Assembly (NCBI GenBank): GCA_023144035.1
Contig: JAGLGM010000008.1
Location: 1 to 26,084 of the forward strand
Direction: 5' to 3'
Length of the DNA stretch: 26,084 bases
From: Candidatus Pacearchaeota archaeon
GTDB lineage: Archaea; Nanobdellota; Nanobdellia; Pacearchaeales; GW2011-AR1
Made by a program: the position numbers and the translations under genes. The first letter of the stretch is position 1, and every line of letters begins with the position of its first letter. Below, piece after piece: positions 10,701 to 26,084 of this stretch. The notes under the pieces were generated by a model. The model was given only the letters and a program-made list of their open reading frames with translations, was not told where the DNA came from and did no database searches.

Positions 10701-12719
10701 ATGCCAGCTAAAACTAAAAACAAGAATGAAGAAAGATTTTTAATTTATCAACCTAGTAATTTATTAAATAGTAATTTAAATATTTCTGAAAAAATTAAAA
10801 GCGTAGATGTAGCACAAGATTCAACACATCTTGATAAAGAACAAACAAAAAAACTTGGTGAACCTCATCCATTTAATTATCAATTAGTGGAAGGTGTTGC
10901 AAAAAAATTTGGACTTATTCCAGCAGTAATAGATAAAATAACCGATTTTACATTTGGACCTGGAATGTATATTTCAAGTGATAATTTAGAATTAGTAGAT
11001 GCATTAGAAGACTGGATATTATCTTCTAAAATAAATGCTCATTTAAAACCATGGATGAGAGAAGGATTATTAAAAGGAACTTCATATATGGAAATAAGTG
11101 GATTAGATAATCTTAGAAAAAAACCAGTGGTAGTAAATATTAGTTCAGATACAATATTTATAAAAAAAGATAAACATGGAATAATAACTGGATATAATCA
11201 ATTTTTAGGAAATAATTTAAATAAATTAACTAAAGAAAATATAAATTTTTTAAATAAAGATAGAATAATTCAATTTGATTCTAATAAAATAGGAAAATCT
11301 AAATATGGTATGGGATTAGTATTTCCAGCATTACCGGTTATAGATAATTATTTATCTGCTAGTACTTCAATACATAAATTAATGAAAAGAAAAGCTAATA
11401 GTCCTTTACATGTAAAAATAGGAGATATAGAAAAAGAACTTTATCCTGAACAATCTGATATAGATGATATAGGAAAGAAATTACAATTTATGAATGAATG
11501 TACTGAATTTGCAACTGGACCAGATGTTGAAATGAAAGTTATTGATTTTGGAGATATTGGGTCAAAATTTAAAGATATTTTTGATTTAGATATGAAAATG
11601 TTATCTTATGTATTTCAAGTACCAGAAGTTATTTTAGGTTCTGATAGAGGTTTTTCAGGTTCTGCAGAAGTTCAAGATGAAGGATTTGATATGAATATAA
11701 AATCATATCAAGAACAAATAGGATTTATACTTAAGAATAAAATATTTGATATTATTGCTGAACTTCTTGGTTTTAAAGATGTTGAATATGAAGTTATATG
11801 GGGACAACAATCAGAAAAAGAAAAAAATACTTTAAGAGAATCTTATCAAAAATTATTATCTTCTAATATATTATTAAGTCCTGGATTAAAAAAACAATAT
11901 GAAATAAAATTAGCTGAATTAGATGGAATTGATTATAATATAGTCCAAAGAGAAAATGAAATAGCTCAACAAGAAGCTGAAAAGAAAGAAAAAGAATTAC
12001 AAAAAAGTTTACAAAAAGAACAACCATTACAAAAAAATGGACCAGTAAAAAAAGAACCTAATAGAGAACATATAAAACATCATATAGAACATTTAATATT
12101 ATCAGGAAAAGCTCCACAAGAAATAGAAATTAATTTAATGAAAGAATTTGTATTAAGTGAAGAAGAAATAAATAAATTAGTAGAAGAACAAATTGATGAA
12201 TTTGAACAAGATTATTCATTAGAAGATTGGATTGGAGAATTTATACATATAAAGAAAAATATATTAGAAGTTATTGCAAGTGATTCTTTTGAAAATTTAG
12301 CAGCAACTAATAAAAAAGATTTAACACTTGGTAAATTAAATAAAAAAGAAATTGAAAAATTAAGAAATGTTATGGATAAAGGATTTAAAGAAGGAAAAGG
12401 ATTAAAAGCTATTTCTAATGATATTAAAAAAATTGGATTAAAAGATAGATTTATTGAAAAAGATGGAAAAAAGATATTACAAATATCTAAAGATAAAAGA
12501 GCATATGCTATTGCTAGAACTGAAACTGTAAGATTAAGAGCAGAAGGTTCATTACAAGCATTTGAAAGTAAAAATAAAAATAAAGTTATATTTACATTAG
12601 TTTCTCAAAAGCCATGTCCTCAATGTGAATCATTAGATGGAAATGAATATCTAATTAATGAAGCTCATGGAATAATTCCAGTTCACGGTCGTTGTCGATG
12701 TAAATGGGAGGCAAAATAA
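10701..12719 (+). CDS. Portal protein fused to a Mu F / SPP1 gp7-like head-morphogenesis domain (672 aa)
   Basis: The N-terminal ~400 aa have portal-like size and character. A Lys/Glu-rich linker follows. The C-terminal YAIARTETVRLRAEG ... CPQCESLDGNEY ... PVHGRCRCKW matches the conserved end of Phage_Mu_F minor head proteins. Confidence 0.7.
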   Translation: MPAKTKNKNEERFLIYQPSNLLNSNLNISEKIKSVDVAQDSTHLDKEQTKKLGEPHPFNYQLVEGVAKKFGLIPAVIDKITDFTFGPGMYISSDNLELVDALEDWILSSKINAHLKPWMREGLLKGTSYMEISGLDNLRKKPVVVNISSDTIFIKKDKHGIITGYNQFLGNNLNKLTKENINFLNKDRIIQFDSNKIGKSKYGMGLVFPALPVIDNYLSASTSIHKLMKRKANSPLHVKIGDIEKELYPEQSDIDDIGKKLQFMNECTEFATGPDVEMKVIDFGDIGSKFKDIFDLDMKMLSYVFQVPEVILGSDRGFSGSAEVQDEGFDMNIKSYQEQIGFILKNKIFDIIAELLGFKDVEYEVIWGQQSEKEKNTLRESYQKLLSSNILLSPGLKKQYEIKLAELDGIDYNIVQRENEIAQQEAEKKEKELQKSLQKEQPLQKNGPVKKEPNREHIKHHIEHLILSGKAPQEIEINLMKEFVLSEEEINKLVEEQIDEFEQDYSLEDWIGEFIHIKKNILEVIASDSFENLAATNKKDLTLGKLNKKEIEKLRNVMDKGFKEGKGLKAISNDIKKIGLKDRFIEKDGKKILQISKDKRAYAIARTETVRLRAEGSLQAFESKNKNKVIFTLVSQKPCPQCESLDGNEYLINEAHGIIPVHGRCRCKWEAK

Positions 12720-12720
12720 A

Positions 12721-12873
12721 TTGTCTAATAAAAGACCTGAATGTGCAGTAAAAAATTGTGACAATGAAGCAATAATTATTTTTGCAAATAAATTAATATG
12801 TGGAGATTGTTTAATGAAAGTTTATAATAAAAATCAAGAACAAATATGGAAAGAATTGGAGGAAGAAAAATAA
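12721..12873 (+). CDS. Possible small zinc-ribbon protein, 50 aa, TTG start
   Basis: Not in the track. Translation: LSNKRPECAVKNCDNEAIIIFANKLICGDCLMKVYNKNQEQIWKELEEEK. It has CxxxxC...CxxC spacing and exactly fills the gap between the portal stop and the next ATG. The start is non-ATG and no SD is visible, so the call is tentative. Confidence 0.3.
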   Translation: MSNKRPECAVKNCDNEAIIIFANKLICGDCLMKVYNKNQEQIWKELEEEK

Positions 12874-12874
12874 A

Positions 12875-13195
12875 ATGGTAATGGTGCGGGTTCCAGGTTC
12901 TGATAGATTTGTTTTTTTACCAGACCATACAGGAGATGTTATATTAGATTTATCAGACTATTCAGAATTAGACGATACATTACAAAATGAAGATGTAGTA
13001 GTAATTGGTGACTGGGAAGATTATACAGGAACTGGAGAAGCAAATAAAGGAGAAGTTCCTTTACAAGGTATAGAAGATATAGACCCATCATCTCCAAGAG
13101 GACAATTAGAAGGTGGAGAAATTGAAAGAACAGATAGAGGAAATAGAACATCTACTCATAGACAAAGAGCTAAATTAATAACAGTAGAAACATAA
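12875..13195 (+). CDS. Hypothetical acidic protein with a basic tail, 106 aa
   Basis: SD ggaggaag about 10 nt upstream. Asp/Glu-rich body and Arg-rich C-terminus. Visibly less AT-rich than its neighbours. No family recognised. Confidence 0.55.
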   Translation: MVMVRVPGSDRFVFLPDHTGDVILDLSDYSELDDTLQNEDVVVIGDWEDYTGTGEANKGEVPLQGIEDIDPSSPRGQLEGGEIERTDRGNRTSTHRQRAKLITVET

Positions 13196-13196
13196 A

Positions 13197-13607
13197 ATGG
13201 AAATTAAAGAATTAGAATATATAGATGAAAAAAATATTGAAGAAAGAATGATAGAAGTTGAAATCCTTGATGATAATATTAAAGAAAAAAGATTTATATT
13301 AAATACCGGTAATGAAGCACAAATAGAATATTTAACAAATATTATAAATGGAGAATTATCTGGAATAATAATAGAATGTCATGAATTAATAAATATAAAA
13401 ATATCAATAGAAAAATATGATATTACTTTGTATGAAAAACAAGGATTTTATGGTTCTAAATATTTATCTTTACAAAATGATTCTACGTATTCTAATAATG
13501 AAAAGGCACAAAATTATGGAAAAGTTTGGGCTTTAAATGATAGATTAAAAATTAATATTGATGGAGGATTTAATTCTATTATAAAATTTTCTGTGAGGTA
13601 TAAATAA
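13197..13607 (+). CDS. Hypothetical protein, 136 aa
   Basis: ORF tightly packed between its neighbours, with a TAAATG junction downstream. No motif recognised. Confidence 0.5.
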   Translation: MEIKELEYIDEKNIEERMIEVEILDDNIKEKRFILNTGNEAQIEYLTNIINGELSGIIIECHELINIKISIEKYDITLYEKQGFYGSKYLSLQNDSTYSNNEKAQNYGKVWALNDRLKINIDGGFNSIIKFSVRYK

Positions 13608-14222
13608 ATGCCAGAAGTAATTATAGATGGATTCAATAAAACAGCCACTCCGTTAGGAATTAATTCTGAAGGAAATATAAATGTAGTTTTAGATGGGGTA
13701 AGAGTAAGAGAAAGTGGATTAGTTATTGTTCCTAAAGAAGAAGATAGAATGATAACTGGAAACGTATATCAAACGGGTTCGTATTTTAAAAATATGGCAG
13801 ACGGAGCATCTGGATTAATATTTTTATGTACAGGTTCAAGTGATATACATTTTACACTTGAATCAAGAACAGATGGAAATGGAATATTTGAATTTTATGA
13901 AAATGTACAAGTAACAGATAGTGGAGTAATTTTACCAATATTTAATCGTAGTAGACATGCAGAAGTAATAGGAAGTATAATTGATGCAGCTATATGGATA
14001 AATCCTATAGTATCGTCAAGTGGTGGAATGATTCATAGTGCTATGTTTTTAGGTGGTAGTGGACCAGGAGAAAAATTTGCATCAGCTGCTGTATCTATAG
14101 CACCGGAAAATGCAGATTGGTTATTAGAAGCTGGAAGTTGTTATATGGTTAAGATAAAGAATGAAGCATATAGAACTATGAATGTTGATTTTAATATAGT
14201 TATGCATAAACATGGTCATTAA
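13608..14222 (+). CDS. Hypothetical beta-rich protein, 204 aa (possibly structural)
   Basis: Long ORF, translationally coupled to the upstream ORF. Beta-sandwich-like composition. No family recognised. Confidence 0.55.
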   Translation: MPEVIIDGFNKTATPLGINSEGNINVVLDGVRVRESGLVIVPKEEDRMITGNVYQTGSYFKNMADGASGLIFLCTGSSDIHFTLESRTDGNGIFEFYENVQVTDSGVILPIFNRSRHAEVIGSIIDAAIWINPIVSSSGGMIHSAMFLGGSGPGEKFASAAVSIAPENADWLLEAGSCYMVKIKNEAYRTMNVDFNIVMHKHGH

Positions 14223-14241: not shown

Positions 14242-14862
14242 TTAATTTATTATTTTAACACCAGATTTAAATCCTTGAAATAAACTTGGTTTTGATTTTC
14301 CTTTAATAGAAAATGCTGTAGCTGCTAATGCAATAGCATTTACAATATCGTCATGAGTTCTAGCTTCATGAGAGATTTTTGGTAATCGTTCTGGATTATC
14401 TTTATGATATTCAGCTGTAATAGATAAGAATTGAAAATACATTTTTTTATCAATAGCTCGTTTTGTATCTTGATATCGTGGTATATGTAATCTCCCTTCA
14501 TCTCTTGTCATTAATATTTTTAAATTATTAAACATTTCTACTTTAATTTTTTGAGTATACCAAATTCCTTCTATTTTGGGTCCTATTTTTTTCTTTAATA
14601 CATCTGTAACTCCAGCCCCAAGTCCAGTAGTATCTACTATAATTTTTTTAAAGTTAAATATTTTATCTAAAAATTCTGCTCTGTCAATTACTTCTGTTAA
14701 ATCAGGAGTATGTTTAGCTTCCATATATACTACAAATATATCATCTTGAAATGGTAATTGTTCTAAAATTACAAATGCTGTTTCATCTTTTCCAGTTCTT
14801 GCAACGTCAATTCCTAAAATGTATATTGATTTTTGATTATATTCTGCTGTTGGAGTTATCAT
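14242..14862 (-). CDS. terL: Terminase large subunit, nuclease (RNase H-like) domain as a separate ORF (206 aa)
   Basis: IYILGIDVARTGKDETAFVIL, VDTTGLGAGVTD and RTHDDIVNAIALA match the acidic catalytic motifs of TerL nuclease domains. The SD-like GAGGT lies 7 nt before the ATG. The ORF starts at the codon right after the TAA of the ATPase ORF. Confidence 0.8.
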   Translation of the reverse strand: MITPTAEYNQKSIYILGIDVARTGKDETAFVILEQLPFQDDIFVVYMEAKHTPDLTEVIDRAEFLDKIFNFKKIIVDTTGLGAGVTDVLKKKIGPKIEGIWYTQKIKVEMFNNLKILMTRDEGRLHIPRYQDTKRAIDKKMYFQFLSITAEYHKDNPERLPKISHEARTHDDIVNAIALAATAFSIKGKSKPSLFQGFKSGVKIIN

Positions 14863-15639
14863 TTATAATACCTCAAATAAATTATAATTTAATTCAGATT
14901 TTTCTAATATATGTGGAGGAAAAAATCCCATAGCATCTGCAACAAATTCACTTTCATATTCACATCGAAATTGAACATCTGTTAATTCTGCCTTTTCATC
15001 ATCTATAAATTTTTGAGTATATTGTCCAACTTTTACTGCGTCTCTCCATGTTACATTTATTACTTCATAATTCGTATCTTCATAACAACTTCTATAAAAA
15101 TGATTTCTTCTTAGTGGAGTTCCAATTTTAATAACTTGTCCTTTATCGCCTTTACTAGCTAAATATGGTATAAGTACAGAACCCACAACTTCATCTTCCA
15201 TATCTCCTGCTTCTTCAATTATTAAAATATCACAAGTATGTCCTCTTTTAGTTCTTCCTCCATGTGCGCAAGTTATACTTAATATTACACTCCTATTATT
15301 AAATATTAATTCTGATTGTGTATCCTTTTTTAATAAAGCTTGAATGTCTGGATTTTCACTTATCAATTCTCTGATTTTACTATACATTAAATTACTTTGG
15401 TCTTGAATAGGTGCTGCTATTATTATAGTTGTTTTTTCTAAAATAGCCATTAGTAAAATATAAATCGCAACCGCTTGACTTTTTCCTGATTGTCTTGACC
15501 ATTTACCAACTATCTTTCGATAGTTTAAACATTTCATTAAGAATTTTGTTTGATAGAAATATAATTTATAATTAAATAGAAAATCAACAGTATCAAATAA
15601 TAAGTCTTCGTCGTTTTTAAGTTCTTCAATTGTGAACAT
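14863..15639 (-). CDS. terL: Terminase large subunit, ATPase domain as a separate ORF (258 aa)
   Basis: Walker A is GKWSRQSGKSQAV and Walker B is CDILIIEEAG. The size matches a TerL N-terminal domain. The ORF ends in TAA at 14863-14865, directly followed in frame by the ATG of the nuclease ORF. Confidence 0.8.
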   Translation of the reverse strand: MFTIEELKNDEDLLFDTVDFLFNYKLYFYQTKFLMKCLNYRKIVGKWSRQSGKSQAVAIYILLMAILEKTTIIIAAPIQDQSNLMYSKIRELISENPDIQALLKKDTQSELIFNNRSVILSITCAHGGRTKRGHTCDILIIEEAGDMEDEVVGSVLIPYLASKGDKGQVIKIGTPLRRNHFYRSCYEDTNYEVINVTWRDAVKVGQYTQKFIDDEKAELTDVQFRCEYESEFVADAMGFFPPHILEKSELNYNLFEVL

Positions 15640-19780: not shown

Positions 19781-20878
19781 ATGGTAGAAGAAAAAATAGT
19801 AACTTTATTAAAAGAAGTGGAAAGAATTATGAGTCCTTATAATATATATGCTGTTGGTGGATGTGTAAGAGATTCACTTTTAGGAGTTGAACCAAAAGAT
19901 TATGATTTCTGTACAAATGCATCTCCAGATGAAATTGAAGAAAAAGTAAAAGCAGATGGTAAAAGAGCATATTTAACTGGTAAAAGATTTGGAACTATTG
20001 GATTTAAAATAGAATATGAAGGTAAATTTGAAATGATAGAAGTTACTACTTTTCGAACAGAAGAATATGAAAAAGGAAATCGAAAACCTGATGTTAAATT
20101 TGTAAAAAATATACAAATTGATTTAGGTAGACGTGATTTTACAATCAATGCAATGGCAATGAGATTAACAAATGATGGAAAATTAAGATTAATAGACCCC
20201 CATGATGGTGAAGAAGATTTATTAAAATGGAGATTAATTAGATGTGTTGGTAATCCTAAAATGAGATTTAAAGAAGACCCATTAAGAATGTTGAGAGCAA
20301 TTAGATTTAGTTGTAGATTTAATTATGAAATTGAACAAAAGACAATGGAAAAAATGATGAGTGGAGCAATACAAATTTTAAATATATCGAAGGAAAGATG
20401 GATGATGGAATTAGATAAAATATTACAATCAGAAAATGTAGAAAGAGGATTAATGGATTTATGGCAATCTAATTTATTTAAATTTATGATTCCTGAATTA
20501 GAACTAATGAGTGACTATGACCAAAATTCTCAATATCATCCTTGGAAATTAGATGTTCATACAATTAAAGTAGTTGAAGCTGTTAGAAAAGAAACAGATG
20601 ATTTGAATATGTTATGGGCTGGATTATTACACGATATTGCTAAACCGTTTATAAGAACAAATAAAACATTAAAAACTTCTGGAGAACAATTAAAACAAGG
20701 ACGAACATATAAATCAAACTACATTGGACATGAAATATTAGGAGCAGAAATGGTAAATAGAATTGCTACTCATTTAAATTGGTCTAAAGAAAGACATGAA
20801 AAAGTTGTTGAGTTAGTTAGAAATCACTTAGAAAATGATTGTCCTTTGAGAAAATTTGACCAGGAGGGTAAGAAATGA
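19781..20878 (+). CDS. cca: Class II tRNA nucleotidyltransferase (CCA-adding enzyme) with C-terminal HD phosphohydrolase domain (365 aa)
   Basis: Motifs GGCVRDSLLG...KDYDF, RRDFTINAMA and EDPLRMLRAIRF mark the PolyA_pol head and neck. WAGLLHDIAKP...GHE marks the HD domain. Confidence 0.85.
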   Translation: MVEEKIVTLLKEVERIMSPYNIYAVGGCVRDSLLGVEPKDYDFCTNASPDEIEEKVKADGKRAYLTGKRFGTIGFKIEYEGKFEMIEVTTFRTEEYEKGNRKPDVKFVKNIQIDLGRRDFTINAMAMRLTNDGKLRLIDPHDGEEDLLKWRLIRCVGNPKMRFKEDPLRMLRAIRFSCRFNYEIEQKTMEKMMSGAIQILNISKERWMMELDKILQSENVERGLMDLWQSNLFKFMIPELELMSDYDQNSQYHPWKLDVHTIKVVEAVRKETDDLNMLWAGLLHDIAKPFIRTNKTLKTSGEQLKQGRTYKSNYIGHEILGAEMVNRIATHLNWSKERHEKVVELVRNHLENDCPLRKFDQEGKK

Positions 20879-21264
20879 CAGACATAATAATTTACACAAC
20901 AAAAGAAGTTTTAGAACATAAAAAGAAAGATGGAATTGGAAAGAAAGGAGATTATTGTTACTGGACTTTTAAAAATAAACCTCAAAAATTAAAGAGGTTT
21001 GATAGAATTTATTTTGCTATTGATAAAAAAATTATTGGTTCTTTTAGAATACACGATATTTGTGGAAATAGACAAGGGTGTTCTCCACCACATTATTATA
21101 GTGAAGAAAAAAATAAGTCAATAAGTCAAGAAGAAAGTCTTGATAGTAGAAGTGATAATATTGAAATTCATTTCTTTAGTGAATCTTGGGAAAATATTAA
21201 ACCAATTCTGACAAAACCATTTCAAGGATTTAAATATGCTGATAAAGTTATAGAATTAAAATGA
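20875..21264 (+). CDS. Hypothetical protein, 129 aa (possible small PUA/ASCH-like beta-barrel)
   Basis: ATGA overlap with cca. The pattern RIYFAIDKKIIGSFRIHDI ... FQGFKYADK weakly recalls ASCH/PUA-like domains. This is a guess. Confidence 0.5.
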   Translation: MTDIIIYTTKEVLEHKKKDGIGKKGDYCYWTFKNKPQKLKRFDRIYFAIDKKIIGSFRIHDICGNRQGCSPPHYYSEEKNKSISQEESLDSRSDNIEIHFFSESWENIKPILTKPFQGFKYADKVIELK

Positions 21265-21268
21265 AAAA

Positions 21269-21664
21269 ATGACAGACGAAATAAAAATACCATACAAACA
21301 ATATGTAATAGTACCTAGAAAACCTAAAATGAGTAAAGGTAAAATCGCAAGTCAGGTGGCTCACGCTACATTCATGGCTTTGGAGAATCAAAAAAATATA
21401 CCTTTAAGAGCTGGCAATTTACCATCTGGATATTTAATTGAAGAATGGAAAAATAAAGGAATGTGTGTTATTGTTTTACAATGTAAAGATGAACAAGCAT
21501 TAAATAACATGGCCAAATATTTAGAACAATGGAATATTTCACATCACCTTTATATTGATGAAGGATTATATGGATGTAAACTATTTACAGCAACTGCTCT
21601 TGCTACAGGAGTATTAACAGAAGAACAATATTGGATGTTTGATAATATGAGGTTGTTTAAATGA
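21269..21664 (+). CDS. Peptidyl-tRNA hydrolase, PTH2 (archaeal/eukaryotic) type (131 aa)
   Basis: KMSKGKIASQVAHATFMAL matches the hallmark PTH2 motif (M)GKGK(L/I)AAQ(V/C)(A/S)HAA. It is followed by W...G..(V)IVL(Q)..DE..L and a C-terminal TA.A.G segment, as in PTH2. Size is typical. Confidence 0.75.
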   Translation: MTDEIKIPYKQYVIVPRKPKMSKGKIASQVAHATFMALENQKNIPLRAGNLPSGYLIEEWKNKGMCVIVLQCKDEQALNNMAKYLEQWNISHHLYIDEGLYGCKLFTATALATGVLTEEQYWMFDNMRLFK

Positions 21665-21939
21665 CATTTAATATATTTAAAAATAAAAAAGAAAAATATA
21701 ATCCAATTTTTAAAATTGGAGACCACGTGGTTTTAATAAAAAATGAAGAATATGCTTATAGTAATCCAATGTATATTTATGAAGTCACTAAGGTTAATAT
21801 TGAAACTATATATGTCCACGGAATTCTTGTTAATATTAATTATATTAATATAAAAAATTGTTGTGGTGGTGGAGAACATTGTGGATTAGATGCTGATAAA
21901 TTTAGATTAATAAGAAGAAAGAAGTGTTATAAAAAATAA
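21661..21939 (+). CDS. Hypothetical protein, 92 aa
   Basis: ATGA overlap with the PTH2 gene. Contains NCCGGGEHCG. No family recognised. Confidence 0.5.
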   Translation: MTFNIFKNKKEKYNPIFKIGDHVVLIKNEEYAYSNPMYIYEVTKVNIETIYVHGILVNINYINIKNCCGGGEHCGLDADKFRLIRRKKCYKK

Positions 21940-21940
21940 A

Positions 21941-23137
21941 ATGAAACAAATATATTACAATAAAGAACAACAGAAAATACCAATTAAGAGTTGGGTAACT
22001 GATATAGAAAGTGGAGCATTAGACCAAGCTAAAAATTTATCTAAAATACCATTCGCATTTAAGCATATAGCATTAATGCCAGATGCTCATCAAGGATTCG
22101 GAATGCCTATTGGAGGAGTAATGGCTACTAAGAATGTTGTAATCCCGAACGCGGTCGGGGTAGATATCGGTTGTGGAATGTGTTCTGTTAAAACATCTAT
22201 AAAAGTTGAAGATTTTGATATTGATACTCTTAAAAAAATAATGGGAGAAATAAGAAAAACTATTCCTGTTGGTTTTAGTCATAGGCAAACTTCATGTGAA
22301 GATAAAGAAATGCCATTAGGAGCTAAACCAATTTATATGAAAATAGTTTCTGAAGAATGGGCATCTGCAAGTAATCAATTAGGAACTCTTGGTGGAGGAA
22401 ATCATTTCATTGAAATGCAAAAAGGAGATGACGGATTTATTTGGATTATGATTCATAGTGGAAGTAGAAATTTAGGACATAAAGTAGCAAGTCATTATAA
22501 TAATATTGCTAAAGAATTAAATAAGAAATGGGCTTCAAGTATTCCTCCTTCTTATGATTTAGCATTCTTACCTTTAGATAGTAATGAAGGAAAAGCATAT
22601 TTAGAAGAAATGGATTATTGTGTTGAATTTGCTTTAGCTAATAGACAAAAAATGATGGACGATATTCAAAATATTATTTATAGTATTATGTTTGATGATA
22701 AAAAAATAGATGTAGAATATCAACCAATGATTAATATAGCTCATAATTATGCAGTAATGGAAAATCATTTTGGAGAAAATGTAATGGTTCATAGAAAAGG
22801 TGCAACAAAAGCTACTAAAGGATTAAAAGGAATTATTCCAGGTAGTCAAGGAACTTGTAGTTACATAGTTGAAGGATTAGGTAATAAAGAAAGTTTTCAA
22901 TCATGTAGTCATGGAGCTGGAAGAAAAATGGGAAGAAAAGATGCTCAAAGAAGATTAAATTTAGAAGAGGAAAAAACTAAATTAGAAGAAAAAGGAATTA
23001 TCCATTCAATTAGAAATGTAAAAGATTTAGATGAAGCATCTGGAGCATATAAAGATATTGACCAAGTCATGGTCAATCAAAATGACCTAGTTAAAATTTT
23101 AGTTAAATTAGAGCCGTTGGGGGTTATTAAGGGATGA
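21941..23137 (+). CDS. rtcB: RtcB RNA 3'-phosphate/2',3'-cyclic phosphate ligase (398 aa)
   Basis: Essentially all signature motifs are present: PDAHQGFGMPIGGV, GVDIGCGM, GGGNHFIE, HSGSRNLGH, AHNY, HRKGAT, PGSQG and SCSHGAGR (the guanylylated His region). Confidence 0.95.
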   Translation: MKQIYYNKEQQKIPIKSWVTDIESGALDQAKNLSKIPFAFKHIALMPDAHQGFGMPIGGVMATKNVVIPNAVGVDIGCGMCSVKTSIKVEDFDIDTLKKIMGEIRKTIPVGFSHRQTSCEDKEMPLGAKPIYMKIVSEEWASASNQLGTLGGGNHFIEMQKGDDGFIWIMIHSGSRNLGHKVASHYNNIAKELNKKWASSIPPSYDLAFLPLDSNEGKAYLEEMDYCVEFALANRQKMMDDIQNIIYSIMFDDKKIDVEYQPMINIAHNYAVMENHFGENVMVHRKGATKATKGLKGIIPGSQGTCSYIVEGLGNKESFQSCSHGAGRKMGRKDAQRRLNLEEEKTKLEEKGIIHSIRNVKDLDEASGAYKDIDQVMVNQNDLVKILVKLEPLGVIKG

Positions 23138-23559
23138 TGGAAAAAATAAATATATTAATAAAAAAAGGAATAGTCAAAAGAAAACCTGGTTATTTATATT
23201 ATATAAATAGAGAAGGAGATTTATATGCAGTAGAAGCAAAAAAAGGACGAGAAAAAGGAGATGAAAAAAATAAATCATGTATAAGAAAGAATAAAATAAT
23301 TAGAAATTTAGAAGAAGAAAAAGAAGATTTAAAATTAAAATATAAACTTAAAAAGAAAAAACAAATTAGAAATTTAAAAGAAGAAAAACAATTTTTTAAA
23401 TTAAAATGTAAACTTAAAAAGAAAAAACAACTTGAACAAATTAAAGAAGATATAGATAATAAACTTAATGGATTAGAATTCGATAGAAGTAAATTTATGA
23501 AAAATTGGTGGAAAGAAAATAAAAATAAAAATGAAATCAAAAATTCTAAAATTAATTAA
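23134..23559 (+). CDS. Lys-rich repeat protein, 141 aa
   Basis: ATGA overlap with rtcB. The N-terminal segment is GIVKRKPGYLYYINREGDLYAV. Two 22-aa repeats follow (IRNLEEEKEDLKLKYKLKKKKQ / IRNLKEEKQFFKLKCKLKKKKQ). Low-complexity sequence, so coding status is less certain than for its neighbours. Confidence 0.5.
   Translation: MMEKINILIKKGIVKRKPGYLYYINREGDLYAVEAKKGREKGDEKNKSCIRKNKIIRNLEEEKEDLKLKYKLKKKKQIRNLKEEKQFFKLKCKLKKKKQLEQIKEDIDNKLNGLEFDRSKFMKNWWKENKNKNEIKNSKIN
23298..23429 (+). repeat. 66-bp tandem duplication (2 units) inside the Lys-rich ORF
   Basis: Units 23298-23363 and 23364-23429 both start aattagaaattta and end taaacttaaaaagaaaaaaca. They are about 90 percent identical by eye and stay in frame (22 aa). 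Confidence 0.85.
23526..23558 (+). repeat. 33-bp direct repeat, copy 1 (spans the stop of the 141-aa ORF and the start of the 71-aa ORF)
   Basis: taaaaatgaaatcaaaaattctaaaattaattaaa versus 23704-23736 taaaaatgaaatcaaaaattctaaaactaataaaa, with 2 mismatches. Confidence 0.9.
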
Positions 23560-23746
23560 AGAAGTACCAGAATTAAAATCAAATCGATGGTATGAAATTC
23601 CATTACATATCATTCATGAATGTTGTGTTTGTGGTAATGAACATGAAGTAAAATTTAAAATAAAAAATAATACATTATACACAAAATGGAAAGGAATTAA
23701 TACTAAAAATGAAATCAAAAATTCTAAAACTAATAAAAAAGATTGA
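23531..23746 (+). CDS. Small Cys/His-containing protein, 71 aa
   Basis: Starts MKSKILKLIK, identical to the start of the next gene because of the 33-bp direct repeat. Contains HECCVCGNEHE. Overlaps both neighbours. Confidence 0.45.
   Translation: MKSKILKLIKEVPELKSNRWYEIPLHIIHECCVCGNEHEVKFKIKNNTLYTKWKGINTKNEIKNSKTNKKD
23704..23736 (+). repeat. 33-bp direct repeat, copy 2 (spans the end of the 71-aa ORF and the start of the nucleotidyltransferase ORF)
   Basis: See copy 1. The offset is 178 bp. Confidence 0.9.
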
Positions 23747-24467
23747 AGAAGAAAAAGATATAAAAGTAATTTTCGCAGTAGAATCTGGAAGTAGGAGTTG
23801 GAACTTTGCATCTAAAGATTCAGATTATGATGTTCGATGTGTTCATGTATCTAAAGTTAAGAAATATCTTAGTCTTGTTAATCCTCCAGAACAAATTGAA
23901 AGTTTAAATGATGTAGAAAATATAGATTTAGTATCATGGGATATAAGAAAGTTTCTAAAATTATTATTTAATTCGAATCCGACTTGTAGTGAATGGTTAA
24001 ATTCATCCATTATTTATATTGATAGTTTTTATAGAACTCAATTAAAAGAAATATTTGAAAAAGGATTTTCTAAATATGCTTTAAAGAAACATTATATTTC
24101 TATGGCAAGACAAAATTATGAAAAATATATTAGAAATAAAAATCCATGTTCACTTAAAAAATATGTTTATGTATTAAGAAGTCTTGCTTGTGTAGAATGG
24201 TTAATTTATAAAAAAGAAATTCCTCCAATAAAATATAATGATGTTATGAAAATTCTTCCAGAAAAATTAAGAAAGTTTTTTGAAGAGTCAGTTAAGTTGA
24301 AGAAATCTGGTGAGGATACTAAAGGTTCACAAAATGAGCCAGTAAATCGGTTAATTGAAAAATATTTTGATATTGAATTTGAAAAAGATGAAGATGATTT
24401 TAATATTGAGATTTTGCATCGAGTTCTTCGAACTGTAATTACATTGCAAGGAAGTGAAATAAAATGA
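23709..24467 (+). CDS. Pol-beta-superfamily nucleotidyltransferase, RlaP-like (PF10127-type) (252 aa)
   Basis: FAVESGSRSWNFASKDSDYDVRCVH matches the GS-x(9-10)-SDxDxR nucleotidyltransferase signature of the family I remember as RlaP (RNA repair pathway Pol-beta family), which is often linked to RtcB. Confidence 0.7.
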   Translation: MKSKILKLIKKIEEEKDIKVIFAVESGSRSWNFASKDSDYDVRCVHVSKVKKYLSLVNPPEQIESLNDVENIDLVSWDIRKFLKLLFNSNPTCSEWLNSSIIYIDSFYRTQLKEIFEKGFSKYALKKHYISMARQNYEKYIRNKNPCSLKKYVYVLRSLACVEWLIYKKEIPPIKYNDVMKILPEKLRKFFEESVKLKKSGEDTKGSQNEPVNRLIEKYFDIEFEKDEDDFNIEILHRVLRTVITLQGSEIK

Positions 24468-24871
24468 AAAAATTAATACGAATAAAATCTAAATCAAAAG
24501 GAAAAAAACTATCGAGAAAAAAATACAGAACAGATATAGAAGAAATAATGGAAAAAGGATTAATAAGTATTGGTTTAACTGGTTATATTTTTGATACTGG
24601 AATTAGAAGTAAATATGGATATCGTCCTGATTTTATGTGGCCAGATATTAAATTCGGAATTGAATGTGATGGTGAACATTGGCATAAACGAACTAAAAAA
24701 CAATTTGAACATGATAGGAAAAAAAATGGATATTTTAAAAGTAAAGAATGGATGATATTACATTTTTCAGGAACAGAAATTAAAACTGATATTCATACTT
24801 GTATAAACAAGATTAAAATAGAAATAAGAAGGAGGAAAAAGAAATATGGAAACAATAAAAGTAAAGATTGA
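24464..24871 (+). CDS. PD-(D/E)xK endonuclease-fold protein, DUF559/Vsr-like (135 aa)
   Basis: YRPDFMWPDIKFGIECDGEHWH fits the D...E.D/ExK core of DUF559-type endonuclease domains. Both termini are basic. ATGA overlap with the upstream gene. Confidence 0.6.
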   Translation: MKKLIRIKSKSKGKKLSRKKYRTDIEEIMEKGLISIGLTGYIFDTGIRSKYGYRPDFMWPDIKFGIECDGEHWHKRTKKQFEHDRKKNGYFKSKEWMILHFSGTEIKTDIHTCINKIKIEIRRRKKKYGNNKSKD

Positions 24872-25373
24872 AGGAACTGCACCATTACTTATGCATAGAT
24901 TTGCAGAAGAAGAAGCTTCTATGAAAAGTGCAAGAACTAAAAGAGTTTATATAGCAGAAGATGAAGCTGAAAAAGCTGCATATAGAAACACTGCTGGTAA
25001 ATTATGTTTACCAACAAGACATTTTAAAGCTTCTATGACTAAAGCTGGAGTAGAACTTATTTTTAAAGGAAGAAAAACATATAAAGATTATATCAAATCT
25101 GGTATTATTTTTAAAGAAGTAGAAACTGTTTTAGACCAACAAAAATATGTAATAGATTCTGTTCCAGCAGTTATTAATCGAGCAAGAATAATGAGACATA
25201 GACCAAGATTTGATAAATGGTCTTGTGAATTTGAATTTGATATAATTGATGAAGCATTAGATGTTACTAATGTTAAACAAATACTTGAGTCAGCTGGAAA
25301 GTATAAAGGTGTTGGAGATAATCGACCTGAATTCGGAAGATTTAAAGTAACAGAATTTAAGAAAATTAAATAA
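24846..25373 (+). CDS. Hypothetical protein with RAMP-like (Cas7/Csm3-like) motifs, 175 aa
   Basis: Strong SD AGGAGGA 9 nt upstream of the ATG. IKVKIEGTAPLLMHRF is a beta-strand plus xPLhhH motif. GKLCLPTRHFKASMTKAG resembles the RAMP motif P(Y/I)IPGSS(L/I)KGALR. The C-terminal GKYKGVGDNRPEFGRFKV resembles the RAMP glycine-rich loop. The CDS call is firm; the family call is tentative. Confidence 0.8.
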   Translation: METIKVKIEGTAPLLMHRFAEEEASMKSARTKRVYIAEDEAEKAAYRNTAGKLCLPTRHFKASMTKAGVELIFKGRKTYKDYIKSGIIFKEVETVLDQQKYVIDSVPAVINRARIMRHRPRFDKWSCEFEFDIIDEALDVTNVKQILESAGKYKGVGDNRPEFGRFKVTEFKKIK

Positions 25374-25382
25374 CTTAATTAT

Positions 25383-25786
25383 TATATTCAATATTGTTAT
25401 GTTGGGTTTTAGTGAGTTGAGTTAAGGTACGTTAAGTTAGGATAAGTTTTGTTGAGTTAAGGTAGGGATTTAATTATCCCTATCATTTTTTATATTCAAC
25501 TAAGTTGCGTTTAGTTAGGTTATGATGAGTTATGATGAGTTTTTGTTTGATTCGTTGAGTTAAGTTGAGTTTTGTTATGGTAAGGAATCATACTTATATT
25601 CACTTGAGTTATGGATTGTTCAGTTAGGTTATGAATTGATAGGTTACGGTATGATGTGTTACGTTTTGTTCAGTTGGGATAAGTTAAGGTAAGGAATTAT
25701 ATTCATATTCAACTTTGTTGTTATCAGGTTAGTTAAGTTACGTTAAGTTGTAGTTGGTTGTGTTAAGGTATGGTAAATTAAAAAAC
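25383..25786 (+). repeat. Non-coding, C-depleted, G+T-rich array of four ~105-bp degenerate tandem units
   Basis: TATATTCA anchors sit at 25383, 25491, 25595 and 25698 (spacing 108/104/103). GGTAAGGAAT occurs at 25579 and 25688, with the variant GGTAGGGATT at 25461. My hand count for 25381-25780 is about 96 G versus 23 C. Stops occur in every frame. Confidence 0.85.
25463..25491 (+). terminator. Weak hairpin + T-run terminator candidate downstream of the plus-strand operon
   Basis: tagggat (25463-25469) / atcccta (25476-25482) form a 7-bp stem with a 6-nt loop, followed by tcatttttt. The stem is short with only 3 G-C pairs. It lies inside unit 1 of the repeat array. Confidence 0.4.
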
Positions 25787-25796
25787 TAAAAAGAAA

Positions 25797-26084
25797 TCAA
25801 TCAAACACACCTTCTAATAGATTTTGATAATATTCAAAAACATGTTTTATTTCATCATTACAACTATAATTTTCTTTTTTTCTATTTTCTTCTTCAACTT
25901 TATCTTTATATATTCCATTCATTACTTTTATAAATTCATAGAATAATTTATTAATTCCATCAAAAGCTATTTCACATTTTTTAAGTCTCTTTTTTAGATT
26001 TATTATTTCTTCTTCAGTAGTAAATTTAACTTTTGGTTCTTCTTCACGATATTCAGGAGAATTTTCAAGCATTAATTTTTTCAT
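25797..26084 (-). CDS. Hypothetical protein (95 aa as seen; the ATG sits at the very window edge, so the true start may lie further upstream)
   Basis: ORF from the track, Glu/Lys-rich and helical. It converges on the repeat array. No family recognised. Confidence 0.5.
   Translation of the reverse strand: MKKLMLENSPEYREEEPKVKFTTEEEIINLKKRLKKCEIAFDGINKLFYEFIKVMNGIYKDKVEEENRKKENYSCNDEIKHVFEYYQNLLEGVFD

Follow-up and report, generated by a model that had tools for sequence, protein, structure and literature searches.

The VIPR systems (short for Viral Interference Programmable Repeat) were first described in two preprints of 2026 (bioRxiv 10.64898/2026.04.26.720920, 10.64898/2026.04.26.720927). 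There Vipr is presented as a RAMP of about 20 kDa which forms a helical filament on guide RNAs of about 100 nt (vrRNAs), themselves made of 9-16 (up to 30) pentamers of the type G1 G2 Y3 N4 N5. One Vipr protomer covers each pentamer, GGY being flipped out and NN presented, and the NN dinucleotides pair with double-stranded DNA as NNx, with transcriptional silencing of competing phages and satellites as the outcome. The preprints distinguish seven VIPR types, whose vap genes include predicted nucleases and helicases; target destruction is suggested for such types, and the nuclease-bearing ones are tied to cellular defence islands. Arrays are placed downstream of vipr, the preprints' own systems are without self-targets, and related repeat consensuses (NNNGG, YNNNG, NNNNG) are mentioned. 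The present work concerns an array at 25383-25786 of a stretch of 26,084 nucleotides (hereafter the window; contig JAGLGM010000008.1 of assembly GCA_023144035.1, deposited as Candidatus Pacearchaeota archaeon), which belongs to an 88.7-kb phage contig (L001) with a terminase, 21 tRNA genes and 27% G+C. We read this region, with a probability of about 0.9, as the guide-RNA array of a phage-encoded VIPR system. The locus is a further VIPR member, whose repeats follow a variant motif and whose partner is a nuclease, and not a categorically new element.

Examination of the letters alone (the sequence-only reading) had already drawn attention to the array, and its measurements proved accurate. Positions 25381-25780 hold A104 C23 G96 T177, a GC skew of +0.61, where about 96 G, 23 C and a skew of about +0.6 had been counted by hand. 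The flanking open reading frames (ORFs), 24846..25373 (+) and 25797..26084 (-), agree with the convergent intergenic gap of about 420 bp described between the stops at 25373 (+) and 25797 (-). The four units begin with TATATTCA on the + strand at 25383, 25491, 25595 and 25698, exactly as had been stated, only two further + copies occurring in the 26 kb, and the junctions GGTA(A/G)GGAAT are present. The skew of +0.61 and a G+T content of 0.68 are the top values among all 400-bp segments of the window. The impression that G and C are balanced elsewhere was mistaken: outside the array, skew has values of -0.2 to -0.49 and +0.2 to +0.47 according to which strand is coding, and it reaches +0.59 in a 400-bp segment at 23121, in a Lys-rich coding stretch. 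Skew alone is therefore not unique to the array, and the view that the array is unlike the rest of the window stands on another property, overlooked in that reading, namely a strict 5-nt period.

The autocorrelation of G in the array is 0.44, 0.38, 0.33 and 0.29 at lags of 5, 10, 15 and 20. Each unit can be written as 12-18 uninterrupted pentamers in which G keeps one position (consensus G-T/G-T-N-N), and the register changes from unit to unit without ever slipping inside one. The longest chain of G at 5-nt spacing counts 18, against a mean of 3.9 and a maximum of 8 in 2000 shuffles of the region, and against 5 on either strand in the rest of the window. Over the four tracts, G1 is present in 58 of 62 pentamers; position 2 is occupied by T (0.66), G (0.21) or A (0.14), position 3 by T (0.91), and positions 4-5 are variable. 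The tandem pentamers of VIPR are found here as the related consensus G-K-U, and not in the strict GGY form. Four independent assemblies contain the locus without any difference.

The gene that precedes the array codes for a protein of 175 aa which, on the strength of profile comparison and structural modelling, is a Vipr homologue with a modelled Csm3/Cas7-like RAMP fold. The protein has no match in Pfam, and a first search of IMG/VR with this sequence alone found no homologue. A profile built from 46 homologues matched one solved structure, PDB 36pp ('SUSP1 Vipr protein'; E 8.8e-22), which the single sequence also matched (E 9.4e-11); by BLASTP the protein is 27% identical to SUSP2 Vipr (E 1e-16). 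The 46-sequence alignment being too diverse for pattern design, a 21-sequence alignment was used instead for that purpose. The AlphaFold (AF2) model has a predicted local distance difference test score (pLDDT) of 92, and its best fold matches in the PDB are Csm3/Cas7 subunits of type III and VII CRISPR effectors (E ~1e-6, template modelling score ~0.6). The label 'RAMP-like', which the protein had received from its sequence, was thus well chosen. In the SUSP1 Vipr structure, H17 and D177 read G1, R138 holds G2, W178 stacks on G2 and R179 lies in the Y3 pocket. The window protein keeps H17, R119 (=R138), D158 (=D177) and R160 (=R179), and has N159 where SUSP1 has the G2-stacking W178, a replacement which would fit a repeat that has lost G from its position 2. 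A search of cultured phages gave 161 records with a Vipr homologue, 27-29% identical, among them Felixounavirus/Suspvirus phages and phages of Mycobacterium, Gordonia and Pseudomonas; almost all of the 25 matches listed are annotated 'hypothetical protein', and one is named an HTH regulator.

The association of array and vipr was followed in 89 loci encoding homologues (36-100% identity; metagenomes and IMG/VR), which together with the window make 90 loci and 400 kb. Of the period-5 G tracts in these loci, 289 share the strand of vipr and 16 are on the opposite strand, and in about 70 loci a tract lies directly beside vipr, mostly downstream and in some cases upstream. Within the tracts three bases in every five are conserved, the remaining two being hypervariable. 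As a positive control, the same detector was applied to phage SUSP2, which is related to the SUSP1 of the preprints, where it finds GGY vrRNAs on both sides of vipr and none on the minus strand. One homologous locus (L005; 62% identity) has nothing in common with the window beyond the DUF559-vipr pair and an array of 468 bp, composed of TATATTCA, a hairpin and NNGGT pentamers, in an otherwise different neighbourhood. Since these three parts alone are shared, the DUF559 gene, vipr and the array travel as a cassette. The clade to which the window belongs counts more than 140 metagenomic relatives.

Repeat motif and two residues of Vipr vary together between clades. One clade has H at residue 17, F or Y at residue 159 and the repeat GGUnn; another has N at 17, an aromatic residue at 159 and (K/U/n)GUnn; and the window's clade has H at 17, N, Q or S at 159 and GUUnn or GYUnn, with L060 as the exception. 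This distribution agrees with the contacts seen in the SUSP1 structure. Within the window's own subclade, L012, L015, L027, L066 and L081 also have GUU arrays. In an independent motif test IMG/VR was scanned for (GTTNN)x6.6, which brought up nine distant Vipr genes beside GUU arrays, some with much higher G+C at NN. The residue equivalent to 159 is N in three of these nine, L in two, F in two, S in one and W in one. The strict rule that a non-aromatic residue 159 means U at position 2, clean in the 90 loci except for L060, fails among these distant systems, and the link between residue 159 and repeat position 2 is best regarded as a tendency, largely at clade level and with few independent events. 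GUU arrays being widespread, the motif itself is not claimed as new. At least 120 loci (L101-L220) carry at least 6.6 consecutive GTTNN, and most have no Vipr homologue detectable with the profile; several are contigs of giant-virus metagenome-assembled genomes with back-to-back matches. They may simply be microsatellites, or else belong to Vipr types that are too distant for the profile.

The pairing rule was examined by taking the 175 guides of the whole set of loci and comparing each with every locus, a match requiring at least 75% of NN correct. Pairing with a 1-nt skip (NNx) gave 152 matches, against 4 for contiguous pairing and 2 for a 2-nt skip. Most of the skip-rule matches stem from one vrRNA of two loci (L022/L024; 3557-3631), whose NN give the first two codon positions of the G-loop that is conserved in Vipr (AGKYKGVGDFRPE). 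This vrRNA matches the vipr gene of 69 loci, five of them at 13/13, and scores 11/13 both with the window's vipr (site 25293-25331) and with its own; it could be an anti-rival guide, a case of rivals targeted inside the clade, or an autoregulatory one. The perfect 13/13 matches are in coding sequence, where the skipped base is the codon wobble position, and other guides match sister phages at 88-91%. The 1-nt-skip rule holds in the window's clade. The window's own guides have no self-target in 35 kb of their contig (the window plus 9 kb), the best sites reaching 8-10 of 15-18 NN and control spacings 6-9.

Four vrRNAs can be predicted in the array (Table 1).

Table 1. Genes and predicted guide RNAs of the VIPR locus (positions in the window)
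Feature	Coordinates	Strand	5' element	Pentamer tract	Guide NN	3' end	Description
Candidate vap gene	24464-24871	+					135-aa DUF559/Vsr-like (PD-(D/E)xK-type) endonuclease; overlaps vipr start
vipr gene	24846-25373	+					175-aa Cas7/Csm3-like RAMP; phrog_4652
Predicted vrRNA 1	25383-25491	+	TATATTCA 25383-25390	25396-25470, 15 pentamers, 14 with G	AT GG TT GA GA AA AC AA AG AA TT GA AA	Constant end GGTAG GGATT	
Predicted vrRNA 1, 3' end	25461-25491	+					Hairpin and T-run
Predicted vrRNA 2	25491-25588	+	TATATTCA 25491-25498	25504-25588, 17 pentamers, 16 with G	GC TA AG AT GA AT GA TT TT TC GA AA GA TT AT	Constant end GGTAA GGAAT	Stem CAAC-TAA-GTTG
Predicted vrRNA 3	25595-25697	+	TATATTCA 25595-25602	25608-25697, 18 pentamers, 18 with G	AT TT CA AG AT TT AG AC AT GT AC TT CA GG AA AA	Constant end GGTAA GGAAT	
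Predicted vrRNA 4	25698-25776	+	Doubled, TATATTCATATTCA 25698-25711	25717-25776, 12 pentamers, 10 with G	GT CA TA AA AC AA GT TG GT AA	End GGTAT GGTAA	Stem CAAC-TTT-GTTG

The constant 3' end, GGTAAGGAAT, is found in units 2 and 3, and near variants of it in units 1 and 4. The tandem doubling of the 5' element in unit 4 is also seen in L016 and L035. The sole terminator-like site of the region is that of unit 1 (25461-25484, followed by a T-run), where shuffles give 0.1. Compared with shuffles, folding z-scores are -3.7 for unit 1, due to its hairpin, and 0.0, +0.63 and +1.19 for units 2, 3 and 4; that units 2-4 fold no better than shuffles is expected for RNA kept single-stranded by protein. 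TATATT boxes have a weak -35 partner in two of four cases. They were considered as sigma-70 -10 boxes, a candidate not settled by the count of promoter-like sites, which is no higher than in shuffles (7 vs 5.7). All matches in an Rfam scan of the region were far under gathering scores, a tRNA scan found none in the window, and blastn of the region against cultured phages returned no match.

By analogy with the experiments on SUSP1 and Pseudomonas fulva, from which transcription, filament formation, DNA targeting and silencing are extrapolated here, the locus could work in the following way. The + strand would be transcribed by read-through from vap-vipr or from the repeated TATATT boxes into four RNAs of about 100 nt, each with a 5' ATAYTCA element, 12-18 pentamers G1-(U/G)2-U3-N4-N5 and the constant 3' end GGUAAGGAAU. 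Vipr would bind one protomer per pentamer, burying the three conserved bases and exposing N4N5, which would pair with double-stranded DNA read NNx NNx, every third base being skipped. The bound target, likely a competing phage or other mobile element, would be silenced, and the DUF559 nuclease may also cut it. This matches the last of three options offered in the sequence-only reading, namely G/U-rich non-coding RNAs in an array, which the RAMP-like protein next to it might bind or process; that option was essentially correct, given the Vipr homology of the protein and the published pentamer vrRNAs.

Several observations weigh against a VIPR array of the described kind. Most pentamers read G-U-U and not GGY, and in SUSP1, according to the preprint, perturbation of GGY (GGY>GAY was among the substitutions tested) abolished silencing. 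Some pentamers of the array are irregular (AGTGA, TGTTT, TATCA, AGTTG). In the protein, the part that the alignment places against the alpha-bundle of SUSP is shorter, and the model gives some of it low confidence. The 3' end GGTAAGGAAT is without structure, and there is no 3' pseudoknot tail as in the SUSP1 clade; the conserved flanking element sits instead 5' of each tract, where ATAYTCA precedes a hairpin in most relatives; the stem of this hairpin differs in sequence among them, and in the window the hairpin is weak. Finally, neither local all-vs-all scans, where matches stayed at background level, nor IMG/VR yielded a natural target for any of the four guides. Five seed scans of IMG/VR (9 or 10 dinucleotides) gave 8, 2, 0, 1 and 0 matches, none of which extends beyond the seed (9-10 of 12-17 NN); ending where the seed ends, these matches point to chance or to an unrelated conserved gene. 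GUU-type guides in general had no target in the same scans.

The absence of a target, together with the weak 5' hairpins, the irregular pentamers and the A found at position 2 in 14% of cases, would also suit a decaying remnant, in which GGU drifted to GUU in an AT-rich (27% G+C) genome and productive loading of Vipr was lost. We consider such decay very unlikely: the register runs uninterrupted across 12-18 pentamers, vipr is an unbroken ORF that retains the key residues, the locus does not differ between four assemblies, and GUU arrays recur in the subclade and beside nine distant Vipr homologues which were found purely by DNA pattern. A more serious contender retains the same VIPR ribonucleoprotein (RNP) and makes it destructive, the filament marking target DNA for the DUF559/Vsr-like endonuclease, so that the target would be cleaved and not silenced. 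The endonuclease gene overlaps vipr and adjoins it in 81 of 90 loci, and the preprints suggest destruction for VIPR types with predicted nucleases or helicases. Those nuclease-bearing types are however tied to cellular defence islands, whereas the window's locus resides in a phage contig with terminase and tRNA genes; moreover DUF559 is a family assignment, and nothing in the present data links the nuclease to the RNP. Cleavage in place of silencing is accordingly a possibility to which we give less than even odds.

Strand-asymmetric, G-rich repeats in an intergenic gap are also what led the sequence-only reading to offer, as its other two options, a replication origin (iteron-type or R-loop-primed) and a packaging or protein-loading array. 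Both lost their footing in the comparison of the 90 loci, where the array moves with vipr and keeps its strand (289 vs 16 tracts). Three conserved bases per five with hypervariable dinucleotides between them are what marks a guide, where an iteron bound by protein would look otherwise; under the skip rule, coding DNA is matched by guides of sister loci, and no replication or packaging gene adjoins the array. An iteron-type origin in particular, which would have identical direct repeats of about 17-22 bp and an AT-rich unwinding element, was rejected on the 5-nt repeat unit with its two free positions, the lack of a rep gene beside it and the way it follows vipr across loci. An element acting at the DNA level is thus highly improbable. 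The TRAP protein binds 11 (G/U)AG triplets spaced by 2-3 nt, which gives a 5-nt period, and the array indeed contains many GAG, AAG and UAG triplets followed by UU at that period; like the TRAP sites of the Bacillus trp leader RNA, it has triplets about every 5 nt on otherwise unstructured RNA. A binding or sponge RNA for TRAP or another ring-shaped or helical RNA-binding protein was our initial reading of the period, set aside when the protein next to the array turned out to be homologous to Vipr. The conserved bases are G-U-U and not the A-G of the TRAP triplet, protein and function differ as well, no TRAP-like gene is linked to the array, and the linked Vipr homologue fully accounts for the period, which leaves this idea next to no credit.

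Read as a VIPR locus, the region has its nearest known counterparts in type II (Escherichia phage SUSP1, Pseudomonas fulva prophage). On both sides there are a RAMP that keeps H17, the arginine of the thumb and D-x-R in the G-loop, units of about 100 nt (predicted here from sequence), three fixed and two hypervariable bases per pentamer, an array on vipr's strand and flanking vipr, an adjacent accessory gene, a phage origin and, within the clade, the 1-nt skip. The window differs in its protein, which is 27% identical, with Asn for Trp178 and a shorter alpha-bundle segment, in the G-U-U in place of G-G-Y, and in its order vap-vipr-array with all four vrRNAs downstream. In place of the 3' pseudoknot tail, which is a mark of the type II clade and not of VIPR overall, it has the 5' ATAYTCA and the constant 3' GGUAAGGAAU. 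With the class 1 CRISPR backbones (Cas7/Csm3 filaments on crRNA) the locus shares the RAMP fold and, going by published Vipr, a constant count of guide nucleotides for each protomer, with a thumb that breaks the pairing at regular intervals; its period is however 5 with 2 pairing bases, against 6 with 5 pairing bases in CRISPR, and its guide is interleaved with the protein-binding motif, unlike the contiguous CRISPR spacer. No CRISPR array with identical direct repeats of 23-50 bp appears in the TRF output, the sole Rfam CRISPR-DR match is sub-threshold and outside the region, and no cas families occur among the neighbour genes.

The candidate vap gene encodes a 135-aa protein that matches Pfam DUF559 at 24.2 bits (cut-off 20.6) and, more weakly, MTES_1575 REase, Vsr and PHROG endonuclease families; its DUF559 homologues are the ones that adjoin vipr in nine tenths of the loci. 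With the gene that SUSP2 carries at the vap1 position it has no similarity, the two being unrelated. Directly upstream of the cassette, at 19781-24467 (+), lies an RNA-repair operon coding for a CCA-adding enzyme with HD domain, a PTH2 peptidyl-tRNA hydrolase, an RtcB ligase, an RlaP nucleotidyltransferase and several small ORFs; its adjacency to VIPR is not kept in other loci. The 21 tRNA genes are on the minus strand at 11311-13711 of the phage contig, just past the right end of the window (window 26084 = L001 11239). Gaps in this tRNA array at about 11534-11835, 12139-12210, 12380-12455 and 13410-13562 may hold unusual tRNAs not called by ARAGORN. An RNA ligase gene (PF09414) follows the array at L001 15261. 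The RNA-repair operon and the tRNA array together look like a counter-measure to tRNA-cleaving host defences. Two abutting ORFs of 206 and 258 aa at 14242-15639 (-) of the window, with a Terminase_6N match in the 258-aa ORF only, may represent a split or interrupted large terminase. In size (~88 kb) and number of tRNAs (~20) the phage contig resembles Ounavirinae phages. No relatives were found in GTDB genomes, and these hence give no clue to the host.

Two other repeats were noted in the window. The stretch 23250-23450, inside ORF 23134-23559 (141 aa, lysine-rich, no family match), contains a 66-bp tandem repeat in 2.2-2.7 copies, and is A-rich and C-poor with the second-highest GC skew of the window. 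Positions 1-187 consist of a 60-bp tandem unit in 3.1 copies (85% match), downstream of a 1412-aa minus-strand ORF.

A further interpretation, which we advance only tentatively and think doubtful as it stands, is that the clade forms a VIPR subtype with an altered recognition code (G1-U2-U3, W178 -> N/Q/S) coupled to a DUF559 nuclease in a virulent-looking 89-kb phage. If so, repeat specificity would co-evolve with residues 17 and 159 (in the 90 loci, G1 accompanies H17 and a degenerate position 1 accompanies N17, and G2 is seen where residue 159 is aromatic and Y2 where it is N/Q/S), and the clade would offer orthogonal Vipr/vrRNA pairs as well as a phage-borne DNA-cutting version.

VIPR is a very recently described, minimal form of RNA-guided DNA recognition and a proposed ancestor of the CRISPR RAMPs. 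The present locus indicates that it can be recognised from raw sequence through the 5-nt G period alone. It extends the range of VIPR to an uncultured 89-kb phage of 27% G+C with an arsenal of tRNA and RNA-repair genes, and documents a large environmental Vipr clade with a conserved DUF559 nuclease partner. The natural variants of this clade (GGU, nGU and GUU repeats; H or N at residue 17; aromatic or non-aromatic residues at 159) may help to dissect how individual residues read individual bases and to engineer orthogonal pairs.

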